Assembly (NCBI GenBank): GCA_964467655.1
Contig: CAYXSN010000001.1
Span: 6,323 to 70,322 of the forward strand
Reading direction: 5' to 3'
DNA from: an uncultured Candidatus Saccharimonadales bacterium
Lineage (GTDB): Bacteria > Patescibacteriota > Saccharimonadia > UBA4664
DNA length: 64,000 nucleotides
The notes beneath the pieces are model-generated. The model did not search any database. It had not been told where the DNA came from and was given only the letters and a program-made list of their open reading frames with translations. Below, in pieces: positions 20,181 to 46,071 of the stretch. Made by a program: the position numbers and the translations under genes. Position 1 is the first letter of the stretch. The number at the start of each line of letters is the position of its first letter.

Positions 20181-20196
20181 TGATTTTGGACACAAC

Positions 20197-20236
20197 TAAA
20201 AACAGGCTCCGGTTGGGAGCCTGTTTTTAGTTTTTT
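20197..20236 (-). terminator. Bidirectional rho-independent terminator downstream of tuf
   Basis: 9-bp stem ACAGGCTCC-GGTTG-GGAGCCTGT, flanked by an A run upstream and TTTTTAGTTTTTT downstream. On the minus strand it sits 11 nt after the tuf stop. Confidence 0.6.
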
Positions 20237-22792: not shown

Positions 22793-22821
22793 ATAATAGG
22801 CACCCACACCAGAGACGTCAA
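22793..22821 (-). promoter_or_regulatory. Strong sigma70-like promoter (TTGACG-17nt-TATTAT) for the hyp151-Nudix pair
   Basis: Minus strand reads TTGACG (plus 22816-22821), 17 nt, then TATTAT (plus 22793-22798), immediately after the fusA terminator. Confidence 0.5.
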
Positions 22822-22834
22822 ATCAAGACACATC

Positions 22835-22865
22835 AAAACGGCAGCTCATTATGAGCTACCGTTTT
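22835..22865 (-). terminator. Rho-independent terminator downstream of fusA
   Basis: Near-perfect palindrome AAAACGGCAGCTCAT-T-ATGAGCTACCGTTTT on plus, with one G-U wobble on the minus-strand RNA. It follows the fusA stop by about 20 nt. Confidence 0.55.
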
Positions 22866-22883
22866 GGATGACGCAGAGCGAAA

Positions 22884-24965
22884 CTAGTCTTTTTTTGCAC
22901 CTGATTTGGCCATAATCTCTTCGGCTACCTGGCGTGGCACTTCTTCGTAATGGTCGAATTCCATAGAGTTCGAAGCCCGACCTTGAGTCATTGACCTGAG
23001 AGTCGTGGTGTAGCCAAACATTTCGGCCAGCGGCACGAAGGCATCGATGATTTTGGCACCGGAGCGGTCTTCCATTTTCTCGATGCGTCCCCGCTTGGAG
23101 TTGAGGTCGCCGATGACGTCGCCCATGAACTCTTCTGGTACGGTCACTTCAACTTTCATAATTGGCTCGAGGATGATGGGCTCAGCCTTTTTGGCAGCTG
23201 CCTGGAAGGCCATGGAACCGGCCACCTTGAAGGCCATTTCATTGGAGTCGACATCGTGATATGAGCCGTCGTACAGTTTGGCTTTGATATCCACCATCGG
23301 GAAGCCGGCTGAAACGCCGTTTTGCATGGCTTCCTTCACGCCTTCTTCGGTTGGCTTGATGTACTCGCGAGGCACGACACCACCGACAATGGCGTTTTCA
23401 AACTCGAATCCGCCACCTGGTTCAAGTGGTGTCAGTTCAACCCAGACATCGCCGTACTGACCGCGACCACCTGATTGGCGGACGAATTTGCCTTGGGCCT
23501 GGGCGGTCTTCTTGATGGTTTCACGGTAAGCTACCTGAGGCTTGCCAACGTTGGCTTCTACCTTGAACTCACGTTTCATACGATCAACGAGGATATCGAG
23601 ATGGAGCTCACCCATGCCCTCGAGAATGGTTTGAGCAGTCTGCTCGTCGGTGTGCACACGGAAAGTGGGATCTTCTTCGGCTAAACGCTGAAGGGCATTA
23701 CCCATCTTCTCTTGGTCAGACTTGGTCTTGGGTTCTACGGCAATTGAGATGACCGGCTCGGGGAAGGTGATGCTCTCGAGAATCACTGGATGGTCAAGAT
23801 CGGTGAGAGTATGCCCGGTTGTGGTGCCCTTGAGGCCGACGGCGGCGGCAATTTCACCGGCGGATACTTCTTGGACTTCTTCGCGAGAGTTGGCGTGCAT
23901 GAGTACGAGGCGGCCGATGCGTTCTTTTTCGCCAGTTGAGGCGTTTAAGATATATGAACCGCTTTTGAGTACGCCTGAGTATACCCTGAAGAAAGCTAGC
24001 TTACCAATGAATGGGTCGGTGGCAATCTTGAAGGCCAGGGCGCTAAATGGCTCTTCGTCGGCTGGTTTGCGCTCAAGCTCTTCGCCAGATTTGGGATTGG
24101 TGCCCCAAACTGAACCAACGTCGAGCGGGTTGGGCAGGAAGTCGACCATGGCATCGAGCAATTTTTCCACGATGACTCCGCGACCATCGCCACCGGTTAC
24201 GGCAAAGAACTGACCCGAGAGCACGCTTTTGCGGATAGCGCTCTTGAGTTCATCGGTAGTCAGCTCGTGGCCTTCGAGGTACTTCTCCATAAGGGCGTCA
24301 TCGGCTTCCACGGCGGCTTCCACCAAATGTTGGCGGTAATTCTTGGCTTTTTCGAGCATGTCGGCTGGAATTTCGCCCTCAATCAGCTCGTGGTCGTGGT
24401 ATTCCTTGTAGGTGTAGGCTTTCATTTCGATAAGGTCGATTACGCCATTGATGGTCTGCTCGAAACCGATGGGCAGGTGGATGGCATAGGCACGCTTGCT
24501 TAAACGCTCATGGATTGATTCGAGCGACTTGTAGAAGTCGCCGCCGGTCTGGTTGATCTTATTGATGAAGCAGATGCGCGGCACGCCGTATTTGTCGGCC
24601 TGGCGCCAAACCGTTTCTGACTGCGGCTCTACGCCCATCTTACCGTCGAACACGGTGACGGCGCCGTCGAGCACGCGCAAGCTACGCTCCACTTCTACCG
24701 TGAAATCGATGTGACCAGGGGTATCAATGATGTTGATGCGTCGACCTTTCCAAAAGCAGGTAGTGGCTGCGGAGGTAATGGTAATGCCACGTTCGCGCTC
24801 TTGCTCCATCCAGTCCATGGTGGCTTCACCTTGGTGGACTTCACCGATCTTGTGGGTTTTACCGGTGCGGTACAAAATACCCTCGGTGGTCGTGGTTTTG
24901 CCAGCATCAATGTGGGCAATAATGCCGATGTTCCGGGTGTTTTCGAGCGAGTATTGACGGGCCAT
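22884..24965 (-). CDS. fusA: Elongation factor G (start trimmed to [25 protein letters not shown])
   Basis: Canonical EF-G G-domain ([20 protein letters not shown]) and domains II-V. The 34-codon N-terminal extension in the ORF track is unlikely to be translated. Confidence 0.97.
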
Positions 24966-25027
24966 GGGGGTAGTTAGAATCCTTTCATAATAATATGTCC
25001 TACACGAAAAAAGCGTGCCAGGCACAA

Positions 25028-25057
25028 ACTTATGGTTATTATACAAGCTAACTACTT
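25028..25057 (-). promoter_or_regulatory. Candidate fusA promoter (TTGATT-18nt-TATAAT, TG immediately upstream of -10)
   Basis: Minus strand reads TTGATT (plus 25052-25057), 18 nt, then TGTATAAT (plus 25028-25035), about 60 nt upstream of the trimmed fusA ATG. AT-rich region. Confidence 0.45.
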
Positions 25058-25074
25058 GGCTAATCAAGTGCTAT
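25046..25074 (+). promoter_or_regulatory. Divergent plus-strand promoter (TTGGCT-17nt-TATTAT), back to back with the fusA promoter
   Basis: Plus strand reads TTGGCT (25046-25051), 17 nt, then TATTAT (25069-25074). Its -35 abuts the -35 of the minus-strand fusA promoter. Confidence 0.4.
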
Positions 25075-25116
25075 ATGGTATTATTTTGTGCGTTCGGTAC
25101 CTACACAATCGAGACG

Positions 25117-25293
25117 ATGAAAGCAGGTAACATCATGAGTTGGCCCGGTCTTAAGCGTACGAACGGCACGGTTCCGTCTCCAGAGAAGCCTGACGTGATA
25201 AGGGGTAGGCGAAAGGCGCAAGAAGAGAAGGAAGAGCAAGAGCGCCTAGCGCGTCGTGGTAGGTGGATGCCAAGAGCCTTTAAGAAGAAGTAA
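25117..25293 (+). CDS. Small basic hypothetical protein (58 aa); coding status uncertain
   Basis: ATG at 25117 gives MKAGNIMSWPGLKRTNGTVPSPEKPDVIRGRRKAQEEKEEQERLARRGRWMPRAFKKK. It lies between the plus-strand promoter and a plus-strand intrinsic terminator. Weak SD. Confidence 0.3.
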   Translation: MKAGNIMSWPGLKRTNGTVPSPEKPDVIRGRRKAQEEKEEQERLARRGRWMPRAFKKK

Positions 25294-25432
25294 CGAGAGA
25301 ACACGCAGGATAGTCATAAGCCCGGAAAATGATCTGCCTGACTGGCATTCTTCCGAACTGATACCCCTAAGGAGCAAGCATGACTAACTACGATTCAGAA
25401 AATAGGCGCGGTGAGCGTACCTAAGCACCACC

Positions 25433-25470
25433 AGCCCGTTACGCGATCCTTGCGTAGCGGGCTTTTACTT
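25433..25470 (+). terminator. Plus-strand rho-independent terminator (12-bp stem plus T tract)
   Basis: AGCCCGTTACGC-GATCCTT-GCGTAGCGGGCT followed by TTTTACTT. The same hairpin sits right at the mpl stop on the minus strand but has no U tract there. Confidence 0.55.
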
Positions 25471-26847
25471 GGCGTTGAGGGACGTTGCTAATTCGTTGGC
25501 CAGATTGTCAAATCCTGAGACCGTCATGCATACCAAAACATCACCTGGCTGGATATGGGCCTTGAGGTGGGTCACGACTTCGGGTCGGTTTTCCAGATAT
25601 GTGGCCGTTTTCCCGGCAACTTTAGCGACATCGGCGCCCGAAACAGTATGGGAGAGGTGGGCTTCGCGAGCACCTTCGATCCCGGTAATAATGCTCATGT
25701 CGGCTTCGTTGAACGCATTTGCATAGTTTGCCAGTAGCGCGGCTGTGCGTGAATAGGTATGCGGTCTGAAGACGGCAATAATGCGACGATGGCGGTAATG
25801 CAGACGGGCGGCTTCTAGAGTGGCAGCTACCTCCGTTGGGTGGTGAGCGTAATCGTCGATGACCGTGACGGCATCATCACTGGTAGTCAGGCGGTTGAAC
25901 CGTCGGTATGAGCCTTTGAACTCTGTGGCGCCGTTGATAACTTGGCCGAGATCGAGACCTGCCTTGAGGACAGCCGCGATGGCGGACAGCGAATTGAGGA
26001 CATTGTGGCGACCAAACACCGGGAGGGCGACGCGTCCGAGCACATTGCCGTACGCCACCACATCAAATTCGATTCCCGCCGGTACATAGGCAATGTTGCG
26101 GGCTTGATAATCGCCCGTGTGCAGGCCATATGTGATGATGTCACAAGGAGCCACCCGGGCTGCCGCTAGGGCGTTGCTGTTTTCGGCGCAGACAATCAGG
26201 CGCCCGGACTTTGGCAAAGCGGCTATGATTTCTTCGAATCGGCTCATGACGGCAGCTTCATTGACAAAGAAATCGGGATGATCCATTTCGATGTTGGTAA
26301 CAATGAGCGTATCTGGGTGATAGTACTGGAGTTTGGACTTGTCCTCCAAAGGACTGGCTCGATACTCGTCACCTTCGACCACCATTGTCTTGGCACCAGA
26401 TAGACGCACCGATGAATCGAAGTTGAAAGGCTGGATGCCGATGACATAATCGGGGTGGCGGCCAGCGCTCTCGAGTAGCCAGGTGATTAGCGAGCTGGTG
26501 GTAGTCTTGCCGTGAGTGCCGGCCACTGCTATTACGTGAGCTTTGGCTGACAGTTCACCTACGAGCTGAGCCCAGGATTTGACAGATATATCATGCTTGG
26601 CAGCTTCAATGATGACGGGGGTATCTGGTGATACATGAGCTCCTGTGACAATGACGGCCTCAACGCCGTGCAGATCGGCTATCTGAAACTCCCGGCTCCA
26701 CGGTATGCCATGTTCATCCAACCAAGCGGCGCCAGGGTCAGCACCAGCAGGATCAAAGCCCGAAACTTTGTACCCAAGCTGGGTGCAGGCTTCGGCCAGC
26801 CCTCGCATGGTGTGGCCGGTAATGCCAACAAAAAACAGATGTTTCAT
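25465..26847 (-). CDS. mpl: Mur ligase family protein, Mpl-like (UDP-N-acetylmuramate:L-alanyl-gamma-D-glutamyl-meso-DAP ligase) or MurC-like
   Basis: 460-aa ORF with the Mur ligase P-loop (AVAGTHGKTTTSSL) and GDEYRASPLEDKSKLQYYHPD resembling the Mpl GDEYDxAFFDKRSKF motif. Confidence 0.75.
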   Translation of the reverse strand: MKHLFFVGITGHTMRGLAEACTQLGYKVSGFDPAGADPGAAWLDEHGIPWSREFQIADLHGVEAVIVTGAHVSPDTPVIIEAAKHDISVKSWAQLVGELSAKAHVIAVAGTHGKTTTSSLITWLLESAGRHPDYVIGIQPFNFDSSVRLSGAKTMVVEGDEYRASPLEDKSKLQYYHPDTLIVTNIEMDHPDFFVNEAAVMSRFEEIIAALPKSGRLIVCAENSNALAAARVAPCDIITYGLHTGDYQARNIAYVPAGIEFDVVAYGNVLGRVALPVFGRHNVLNSLSAIAAVLKAGLDLGQVINGATEFKGSYRRFNRLTTSDDAVTVIDDYAHHPTEVAATLEAARLHYRHRRIIAVFRPHTYSRTAALLANYANAFNEADMSIITGIEGAREAHLSHTVSGADVAKVAGKTATYLENRPEVVTHLKAHIQPGDVLVCMTVSGFDNLANELATSLNAK

Positions 26848-26882
26848 GGTGCCATTGTACCATCATGCTGATAGTGCAAGAG

Positions 26883-27089
26883 TTATTTACCATTCAGATG
26901 ATGTAAGTTCATGGATTCGGTAACAAATTCTTGCCACCACCATTCGTGAGGGTTGCTGTTTTTCATCGCCTGGGCAATTGCTTGGGCTGATTTGGTTCTC
27001 AAGTGTGGTACTCGATTGATAAAATCGTCATCAAACCATTTTTGGGCCAATTTGTTACCACGCCAACCCATGAGCCACTCGATGTACAT
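26883..27089 (-). CDS. Small Trp-rich hypothetical protein (68 aa)
   Basis: ORF between mpl and the Nudix gene on the same strand. No family recognised; could be spurious. Confidence 0.3.
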   Translation of the reverse strand: MYIEWLMGWRGNKLAQKWFDDDFINRVPHLRTKSAQAIAQAMKNSNPHEWWWQEFVTESMNLHHLNGK

Positions 27090-27158
27090 GTGACCGCGGC
27101 ATATCGATGAGCATGGCGGCTTGTTCTATGAAATGGAGCGATGAGATTGACGGTTGAG

Positions 27159-27785
27159 TCATTGACTTGCCATTCGGTTTTTGACGGTAGTTCTGGCTTG
27201 AACTGTCAGATCGGGTAGGTCCAGTAGTTTTTGAAATGAATTAAGGTGATACCAAAAACGCGCGGCCAGAAAATCGTACTCCTGAGATCTCGGACCGCTG
27301 GCATCAATCAGCGCTTTCGCCTGCTGTAGTGTCATTGGCTTCACTTCAATCTTTTCGCCATTGTCGAGCTGTGGTTGGGTGTATTGGGTGGGTGCCCAGG
27401 CCAGGAATGTGTAAACTAGGCGTTCAATCCGAAAATCTTTTTGGCGGCATTCAATGAGTCGCCAATTCGCAAATGACCACCCAGTTTCCTCTGTCACTTC
27501 TCTTTGTGCGGCTTCTAGCTCGGTTTCTAGTTCAATGTCATGGGCACCAGAGGGTAAATCATAGTAGAGTGCGGAACCGGGCTGCTGTTGGTGGAGAACC
27601 AGGAGTTTATCATCGACGAGACATAATACCTCCACCGTATCAGGGCGTTTGGCCATCTCAAACGTTGCGGTGCTGCCGTCGAACATGGTCTGAGGCCACT
27701 GATAGACATCAAACATCACCCCCTCGAAGACCCGCTTGGCTTGAGAAGGTATGGTTCTAGCATATGGCGGCAGATATTGACGCAT
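27159..27785 (-). CDS. Nudix hydrolase
   Basis: 208-aa ORF with a Nudix box, SGAHDIELETELEAAQREVTEETGW. Confidence 0.8.
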   Translation of the reverse strand: MRQYLPPYARTIPSQAKRVFEGVMFDVYQWPQTMFDGSTATFEMAKRPDTVEVLCLVDDKLLVLHQQQPGSALYYDLPSGAHDIELETELEAAQREVTEETGWSFANWRLIECRQKDFRIERLVYTFLAWAPTQYTQPQLDNGEKIEVKPMTLQQAKALIDASGPRSQEYDFLAARFWYHLNSFQKLLDLPDLTVQARTTVKNRMASQ

Positions 27786-45987: not shown

Positions 45988-46071
45988 TGGTGCGGATGAA
46001 AGGATTCGAACCTTCACGACTTGCGTCACTAGCTCCTAAGGCTAGCGTGTCTACCATTTCACCACATCCGC
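45988..46071 (-). tRNA. tRNA-Leu (anticodon TAG)
   Basis: Minus strand reads GCGGATGTGGTGAAATGGTAGACACGCTAGCCTTAGGAGCTAGTGACGCAAGTCGTGAAGGTTCGAATCCTTTCATCCGCACCA. 7-bp acceptor stem GCGGATG/CATCCGC; anticodon stem CTAGC/GCTAG with loop CTTAGGA (anticodon TAG); long variable arm; T-loop TTCGAAT; encoded CCA. Confidence 0.85.

Follow-up and report, generated by a model that had tools for sequence, protein, structure and literature searches.

A candidate small basic protein gene on the opposite strand of the murC-fusA spacer in an uncultured Saccharimonadia bacterium

What is encoded in the 499 bp that separate murC from fusA in a 64,000-nucleotide stretch of DNA (hereafter the window) from an uncultured member of the Saccharimonadia (TM7, Patescibacteria)? 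Both neighbours lie on the minus strand, and the spacer between them holds a plus-strand unit in which a predicted promoter, a short open reading frame (ORF) and an intrinsic terminator are packed within less than 420 bp. Small proteins are under-annotated, especially in the reduced-genome Patescibacteria (Candidate Phyla Radiation, CPR), where much of the lineage-specific biology is unexplained, and the locus provides a compact, bounded case that is backed by relatives. The best explanation appears to be a small gene confined to a few Saccharimonadia lineages and transcribed opposite to its neighbours; a rough probability of 0.68 is given to a real monocistronic gene that encodes a small basic protein and that some gene callers overlook. 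The elements of the locus are as follows.

25038-25067, minus strand: divergent fusA promoter, TTGATT (25067-25062), 18-nt spacer, TATAAT (25043-25038), 10 of 12 positions matching
25056-25084, plus strand: sigma-70-like promoter of the small gene found by pattern scan, TTGGCT (25056-25061), 17-nt spacer, TATTAT (25079-25084)
25091-25134, plus strand: predicted 5' untranslated region, with the block ACCTACACAATC (25099-25110) common to three lineages as shared k-mers
25128-25264, plus strand: hypervariable tract in the ORF, with 62 of the 73 differences that separate the window from the sister strain L104 over 2.6 kb
25135-25293, plus strand: small ORF of 52 amino acids (aa) plus stop, product MSWPGLKRTNGTVPSPEKPDVIRGRRKAQEEKEEQERLARRGRWMPRAFKKK
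25369-25374 and 25380-25424, plus strand: AAGGAG and, after a 5-nt gap to the ATG, a short ORF, product MTNYDSENRRGERT
25433-25470, plus strand: intrinsic terminator, a stem-loop at 25433-25463 followed by TTTTACTT

Relatives of the locus were reached via contigs carrying murC homologues of 62-75% identity. Seven contigs whose murC protein is identical showed 100% DNA identity throughout the region and were therefore uninformative for conservation. In a contig scan by murC, the universal Mur-ligase motif VIDDYAHH caused saturation, and the relatives obtained were all of 30-37% identity. A metagenome DNA-pattern scan of the promoter region gave eight matches, which showed no BLAST similarity to window 22801-27000 and were read as chance. 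The opposite-strand contents of the murC-fusA spacers on the contigs with murC homologues, with the protein identity of the murC product, are given below.

L088: murC 75%; 49 aa, homologous to the window ORF
L091 lineage (including L106): murC 74%; homologous ORF of 53-54 aa, then an 85-aa ORF
L092 (6453-7456): murC 69%; 232 aa and a partial ORF, the tail of which is excisionase-like in our reading
L093 (1519-1746): murC 67%; 75 aa
L094 (1618-2343): murC 64%; 241 aa
L095 (3962-4399): murC 62%; 145 aa
P0010 contig: murC 62%; 222 aa, with a faint precomputed HTH_17 match

Every relative examined thus carries some opposite-strand ORF at this position, with mostly unrelated contents. In L088 and the L091 lineage, however, the whole arrangement of the window recurs, the three sharing the promoter pair, the leader block ACCTACACAATC, the position of the ORF start and a homologous terminator. 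The window and L088 ORFs are 48% identical over 31 aa (E = 3e-5), while their DNA has a single 9-mer in common inside the ORF; protein similarity exceeds DNA similarity. The reading frame is open in the window, in L104/L105, in L088 and in three alleles of the L091 lineage (49-58 aa), despite a nucleotide divergence of about 50%; murC DNA across the lineages is itself only 68% identical. When all six frames were compared, that of the ORF scored best, with 35.0 bits vs 29.3 for the next, an antisense frame, and antisense ORFs overlapping the small ORF were not conserved in the relatives. In the core segment (WPGLKRTNG vs WPRGLARTNG), 8 nucleotide changes have left 8 of 9 residues intact, with synonymous differences in 5 of those 8 codons, a pattern that random substitution produced in 1.25e-4 of trials for a segment picked post hoc. 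The alignment with the L088 protein includes a one-residue gap (R9) and a longer N-terminus. The plus strand is also purine-rich at 25100-25400, with the opposite bias in the flanks, a point in favour of the small gene.

An exhaustive HMMER search of 1.84 billion representatives recovered one relative, P0122 (58 aa, E = 4e-5), which is encoded at the murC-fusA position in L104 and L105. Exact look-ups further revealed that three ORF alleles of the L091 lineage had been called by gene callers in several assemblies, and the start equivalent to 25135 was the one picked in L104-L111, whereas the small ORF was left uncalled on the long contig L001. Alignment of the six distinct alleles left seven invariant positions (M1, W3, R8, P14, P16, P19 and R25), with in-frame indels in L104 (18 nt) and L109 (3 nt). 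Conservation in relatives, the absence of which the original prediction had named among its grounds for refutation, was seen for the ORF and the hairpin alike though not for the mini-ORF, with the ORF, promoter and terminator recurring in two other lineages and the sister strain. A family hidden Markov model run on the window and all 111 loci, translated in six frames, detected neither a paralogue nor a further member. Likewise, a word-indexed protein search returned only the query for a 72-aa form and only the known alleles for a six-allele profile, and a literature search on small proteins of Saccharibacteria gave nothing relevant. Two candidate connections were discarded: the clustering of P0124 with the 617-aa P0125 was an artefact, since the two proteins do not align, and the small ORF showed no similarity to the larger opposite-strand proteins of L092, L094, L095 and L093, of which it might have been a fragment.

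The ORF had been described as a 58-aa, highly basic one at 25117-25293. It is indeed present and basic, with 16 K+R vs 7 D+E in the 52-aa product, but the likelier start is the ATG at 25135. The 58-aa form would possibly arise from the in-frame upstream ATG at 25117, which is also conserved and is without a usable Shine-Dalgarno (SD) sequence; an exact-protein look-up of this form found no record. The predicted product would yield the tryptic peptide TNGTVPSPEKPDVIR. Its N-terminal part, rich in proline, tryptophan and arginine, is probably disordered, and is followed in the low-confidence AlphaFold2 model by a lysine- and arginine-rich helix.

The hairpin and T tract proposed as a strong plus-strand terminator at 25433-25470 were confirmed. 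Its stem comprises 14 pairs, including one G-U and 8 G-C, around a 3-nt loop, and folds at -23.8 kcal/mol on the plus strand (z = -5.7 vs shuffles) against -19.2 kcal/mol on the minus strand, the latter being weaker because the G-U pair turns into a mismatch. The hairpin is unique in the window, and no terminator-like site within 20 kb ranks higher. Both L088 and L091 retain it, with 13 consensus pairs in the three lineages (three sequences compared) and compensatory changes in the upper stem; two pairs are altered on both sides and one is altered to G-U. In all three lineages the T-rich tail is confined to the plus side, and this strand assignment is meaningful for this bacterium because fusA and tuf possess canonical minus-strand terminators with T runs. 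With its G+C-rich stem of 13-14 pairs, short loop, T run and compensatory conservation, the element resembles other intrinsic terminators between convergent genes, from which it differs in its T run, a short and interrupted one (TTTTACTT) that overlaps the stop codon of the convergent murC (25465-25467). Nor is it of the symmetrical two-way type, such as that at 20194-20232, because the murC strand has no T run.

The putative back-to-back divergent promoters were likewise found at, or within a few bases of, the positions first proposed for them. The plus-strand promoter matches at 9 of 12 positions, carries an extended -10 TG at 25076-25077 and has its predicted start near 25091; its -35 hexamer adjoins that of fusA, and the two predicted starts lie about 60 bp apart. 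It is nearly identical in L104/L105 and the L091 lineage, while in L088 the scan independently found a promoter of differing bases (TTGGCA-17-TATGGT with TG). The promoter pair is thus kept in both other lineages, and a fusA-type promoter can be read in L094 (TTGATA-17-TAAAAT). The opposed sites, the adjacent -35 hexamers and the short distance between predicted starts are as in other divergent sigma-70 promoters; the difference is that the plus-strand -10 sits where one would expect an AT-rich element upstream of the fusA -35, and part of the conservation of the plus-strand promoter may thus belong to fusA. Between the window and L106, promoter and leader are 87-92% identical, like fusA itself, and the ORF with the stretch that follows it, at 42-57%, is the least conserved. 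The leader has no stable structure (fold z of +0.6 to +2.0 in three lineages). An SD-like AGCAGGT at 25122-25128, 6-7 nt upstream of the ATG at 25135, is a partial SD kept in four lineages or strains.

The most unusual property of the ORF is its localised variability. L104, whose murC DNA is 99.7% identical to that of the window, shows 63 differences from it in 25116-25264 (one of them, at 25116, just upstream of the hypervariable tract) and only 10 (0.4%) in the other ~2.4 kb. Left out of these counts was positions 44-211 of the L104 contig, which match window 24736-24569 in reverse at 79% identity and are probably an assembly artefact. The proportions of nonsynonymous and synonymous differences (pN and pS) are 0.25 and 0.22 in the small ORF, compared with 0.002 and 0.006 in murC. 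The L104 ORF nevertheless stays open, with an 18-nt in-frame repeat expansion. Within the L091 lineage, strain differences again cluster, in codons 2-15, and amount to 6.8% in the ORF vs 0.3% in fusA. The N-termini fall into two classes, the window and L088 sharing WPxGLxRTNG while L104 shares LWDNRxxRR with the L091 lineage, a grouping that contradicts the murC relationships; synonymous differences are present within each group. The cause would be one of two, either recombination importing diverged alleles or local diversifying change, and an N-terminus that is changed or exchanged so rapidly suggests a role in specificity or conflict rather than in housekeeping. The L104 repeat is itself of note: at ~960-1000 of that contig (an insertion after window 25222), GCGCGAGAR occurs three times in frame, giving AREAREARE, where the window has one copy, which looks like slippage-type length variation inside the ORF.

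A number of results weigh against a protein-coding gene. ORFs of at least 52 aa with an ATG arise in 31% of shuffles of the spacer, and a promoter scan over 20 kb gave 25 promoter-like sites vs 14.9 expected, so that the plus-strand promoter match is by itself without significance; the SD-like element appears weak. Four alleles had zero matches in Pfam, NCBIfam, PHROGs and PADLOC, and the sole match of the window allele among PDB sequences had E = 4.4. An AlphaFold2 model, run with five alleles, reached a predicted local distance difference test (pLDDT) score of 60, i.e. low confidence and too low to support a fold search, with the N-terminal 19 residues unstructured and a helix at 20-42. The margin of the ORF frame over the antisense frame is modest. 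The comparison with L104 shows no purifying selection, since pN/pS is ~1 overall, and the 11 nonsynonymous to 1 synonymous differences after codon 13 are not significantly off neutral by our estimate. The in-frame indels are weak evidence because the non-coding leader, too, has a 3-nt indel. Finally, the C-terminal halves of the three lineages cannot be aligned, and the family is known from these three lineages only. What raises the unit above chance is the conservation in relatives together with the hairpin, the ORF or the promoter alone not being significant.

One rival explanation is that no gene exists. The spacer would then be a decaying or drifting remnant (e.g., of an old insertion) with a chance ORF, the hairpin would serve the end or stability of the murC mRNA, and the plus-strand promoter match would arise incidentally from the AT-rich sequence preceding the fusA promoter. 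The frequency of such ORFs in shuffles, the pN/pS of ~1 and the differing C-terminal tails are all as this explanation would have them, as are the unrelated ORFs at the position in other relatives, the decay nearby (e.g., a deletion in an HD_3-domain gene) and the lack of conservation of the 14-codon ORF. Neutral drift, however, would not produce ~25% divergence in 140 nt inside flanks that differ by 0.4%; the position, frame, start and seven residues of the ORF are retained among genomes whose murC DNA is 68% identical; the conserved core is biased towards synonymous sites; and the G-U pair and T tail of the hairpin favour the plus strand. The absence of a gene is accordingly judged improbable. 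Slightly better placed, and still unlikely, is the proposal that the RNA itself or the act of transcription is functional and the ORF incidental, the unit being a small RNA (sRNA) of ~380 nt or a convergent 'insulator' colliding with read-through from murC ahead of the fusA promoter. An opposite-strand unit with unrelated contents is present in every relative examined, read-through from murC is plausible past a hairpin with no minus-strand T run, and it is the promoter and 5' leader, not the body of the ORF, that are most conserved. On the other hand, Rfam at the gathering score identified a single tRNA at 45991-46071 in the whole window and nothing at the locus, and a scan of 24900-25600 with E up to 10 gave only two eukaryotic families, far below threshold. 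The fold of the plus-strand transcript (382 nt, z = -0.21) is no better than those of shuffles, the leader is unstructured, and targets complementary to the conserved 12-mer ACCTACACAATC, searched within the window, occurred at chance level only. The ORF, moreover, is open in six alleles with greater similarity in amino acids than in DNA, and it is in the transcript body that conservation at the locus is lowest.

The original prediction had also offered a leader peptide with an attenuator-like element, pointing to a 13-codon ORF behind a perfect AAGGAG. Both motif and ORF are present, although the latter has 14 codons (stop at 25422-25424). Under this hypothesis, the ribosome that ends the short ORF would mask the 5' arm of the stem and so modulate read-through, which accords with the perfect AAGGAG 5 nt upstream of the ATG and with a stop codon 8 nt from the hairpin, close enough for a terminating ribosome to cover the arm. 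The motif and ORF are identical in L104/L105; outside this species, however, no conservation was found, the mini-ORF being missing in L088 and the L091 lineage, both of which keep the terminator. It lacks a run of regulatory codons, the minimum free energy and centroid folds show no competing antiterminator pairing, and no plus-strand gene follows for many kilobases, antisense murC coming next. Attenuation is therefore very improbable, and a functional role for the 14-codon ORF is unsupported. With no Rfam family, a shuffle-like fold, a mini-ORF limited to this species and no downstream plus-strand gene, both the sRNA and the attenuator, as options for the locus, found no support. The idea that the short ORF is what a deletion left of the L091-lineage 85-aa ORF was rejected too (alignment score of 36.5 vs a shuffle mean of 38.2).

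If the unit is the gene of a small basic protein, we infer from the arrangement of its elements that RNA polymerase would start near 25091, at a sigma-70-type promoter back-to-back with that of fusA. A short unstructured leader with a weak SD-like element would then direct initiation at the ATG at 25135, or possibly 25117, and a protein of 52 (or 58) aa would be made. Transcription would stop at the hairpin and U run of 25433-25470, which would keep the polymerase from running antisense into murC, and the expected RNA would measure ~375-380 nt. Since the start sites are only ~60 bp apart, expression may be coupled to that of fusA by promoter competition. As to its biochemical role, a disordered basic binder of nucleic acid or of the ribosome is our guess. 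A bolder and improbable version holds that the ORF is a young gene which may have arisen through divergent transcription from the fusA promoter, whose N-terminal classes, at least two and both old, are shared across species through balancing selection or interspecies recombination, and whose product is a specificity or conflict factor. Such a factor may act, e.g., in host, phage or kin interactions of these episymbiotic bacteria, at a position that may acquire different ORFs in each lineage.

Read as a gene, the unit encodes an orphan bacterial small protein and is not a new kind of element. Small basic ribosome-associated proteins include Sra (RpsV) and RMF of E. coli and the mycobacterial bS22/bL37, and the predicted window product would be similar to them in its ~50 residues, strongly basic character, largely unstructured chain and single helix. 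As with lineage-restricted products of small ORFs, it has its own small transcription unit beside translation genes and is sometimes missed by gene callers. It departs from the ribosome-associated proteins in having no Pfam, NCBIfam or PDB similarity and being found in three lineages only, and from ribosomal components in the hypervariability of its N-terminus among near-identical strains. Peptide-encoding dual-function sRNAs (SgrS/SgrT, RNAIII/hld and SR1/SR1P, for example) share with the predicted unit a short independent transcript with its own promoter, terminator and small ORF, but the window unit has no conserved RNA structure, Rfam match or candidate base-pairing region. The short ORF with a strong SD that ends just before an intrinsic terminator recalls the leader-peptide transcription attenuators trpL and pheL, from which the locus differs in lacking a downstream gene, an antiterminator alternative and regulatory codons, and in the non-conservation of the short ORF. 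Allelic peptide types that cut across strain phylogeny are familiar from the ComC and AgrD pherotypes, and these provide a lead only: the likeness lies in a very small gene with variant classes at odds with genome relationships, whereas the window product is hydrophilic and basic, without a secretion leader, and no processing, export or receptor genes adjoin it.

Of all these features, only the strain-level hypervariability merits being followed up. Should the gene prove real, the locus would serve as a cheap strain-typing marker and its product as a candidate fast-evolving interaction factor; if expression proves negative, the locus would be a useful example of how a convincing mini-gene arises in a variable spacer.

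The wider neighbourhood is occupied by long minus-strand ORFs, which from ~18 to 43 kb include rpoB, rpoC, rpsL, rpsG, several inserted genes, a Mur ligase, fusA, two small genes and tuf. The absence of other plus-strand genes nearby, as first reported, agrees with the ORF map, the other plus-strand ORFs at 17.9-43 kb (of which some were looked at for identity) overlapping longer minus-strand ORFs. fusA, starting at 24965, encodes elongation factor G (EF-G; TIGR00484, 1106 bits). The Mur ligase, initially named mpl, should be renamed murC, as it passes the NCBIfam murC cut-off (344 bits vs 335) and fails that of mpl (251 vs 389); it ends at 25465, and its closest named relatives are proteins of 'Candidatus Saccharimonadia' metagenome-assembled genomes. 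Between a NUDIX gene and murC, the minus-strand HD_3-domain gene at 26883-27160 has suffered an internal deletion of ~104 codons relative to strain L104, which leaves residues 1-31 and 136-205 and a 68-aa ORF; it is likely a pseudogene.

With regard to the spacers of the relatives, each of the unrelated ORFs (75-241 aa) has its own hairpin adjoining the murC stop. Those of L092-L095 were scanned and had no known-family match, and the murC-fusA spacer looks like a hotspot for gene gain. The second, 85-aa ORF of the L091 lineage lies before the shared terminator (4240-4497 in L106; also in L091, L107, L108 and L110), and its cluster-mate P0132 is NCBI QQR52049.1, a 'hypothetical protein' with no family match.

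Upstream of fusA, an AAGGA (window 24966-24985) is kept in six of six lineages, 12-17 nt from the ATG, a distance that exceeds the usual SD spacing. In the fusA 5' leader, between the predicted promoter and the ribosome-binding site, a short G+C hairpin (GTGCCTGGCAC) followed by T6 is present on the minus strand at 25007-25026, and a hairpin with another stem sequence and the same T5-6 run was found in L088, L093, L094, L095 and L106. Its possible roles are attenuation in the leader, pausing or 5' stabilisation of the EF-G mRNA. Further along, between tuf and the next gene, a perfect palindromic hairpin at 20194-20232, flanked on either side by A and T runs, resembles a two-way terminator, unlike the one-sided hairpin after murC.

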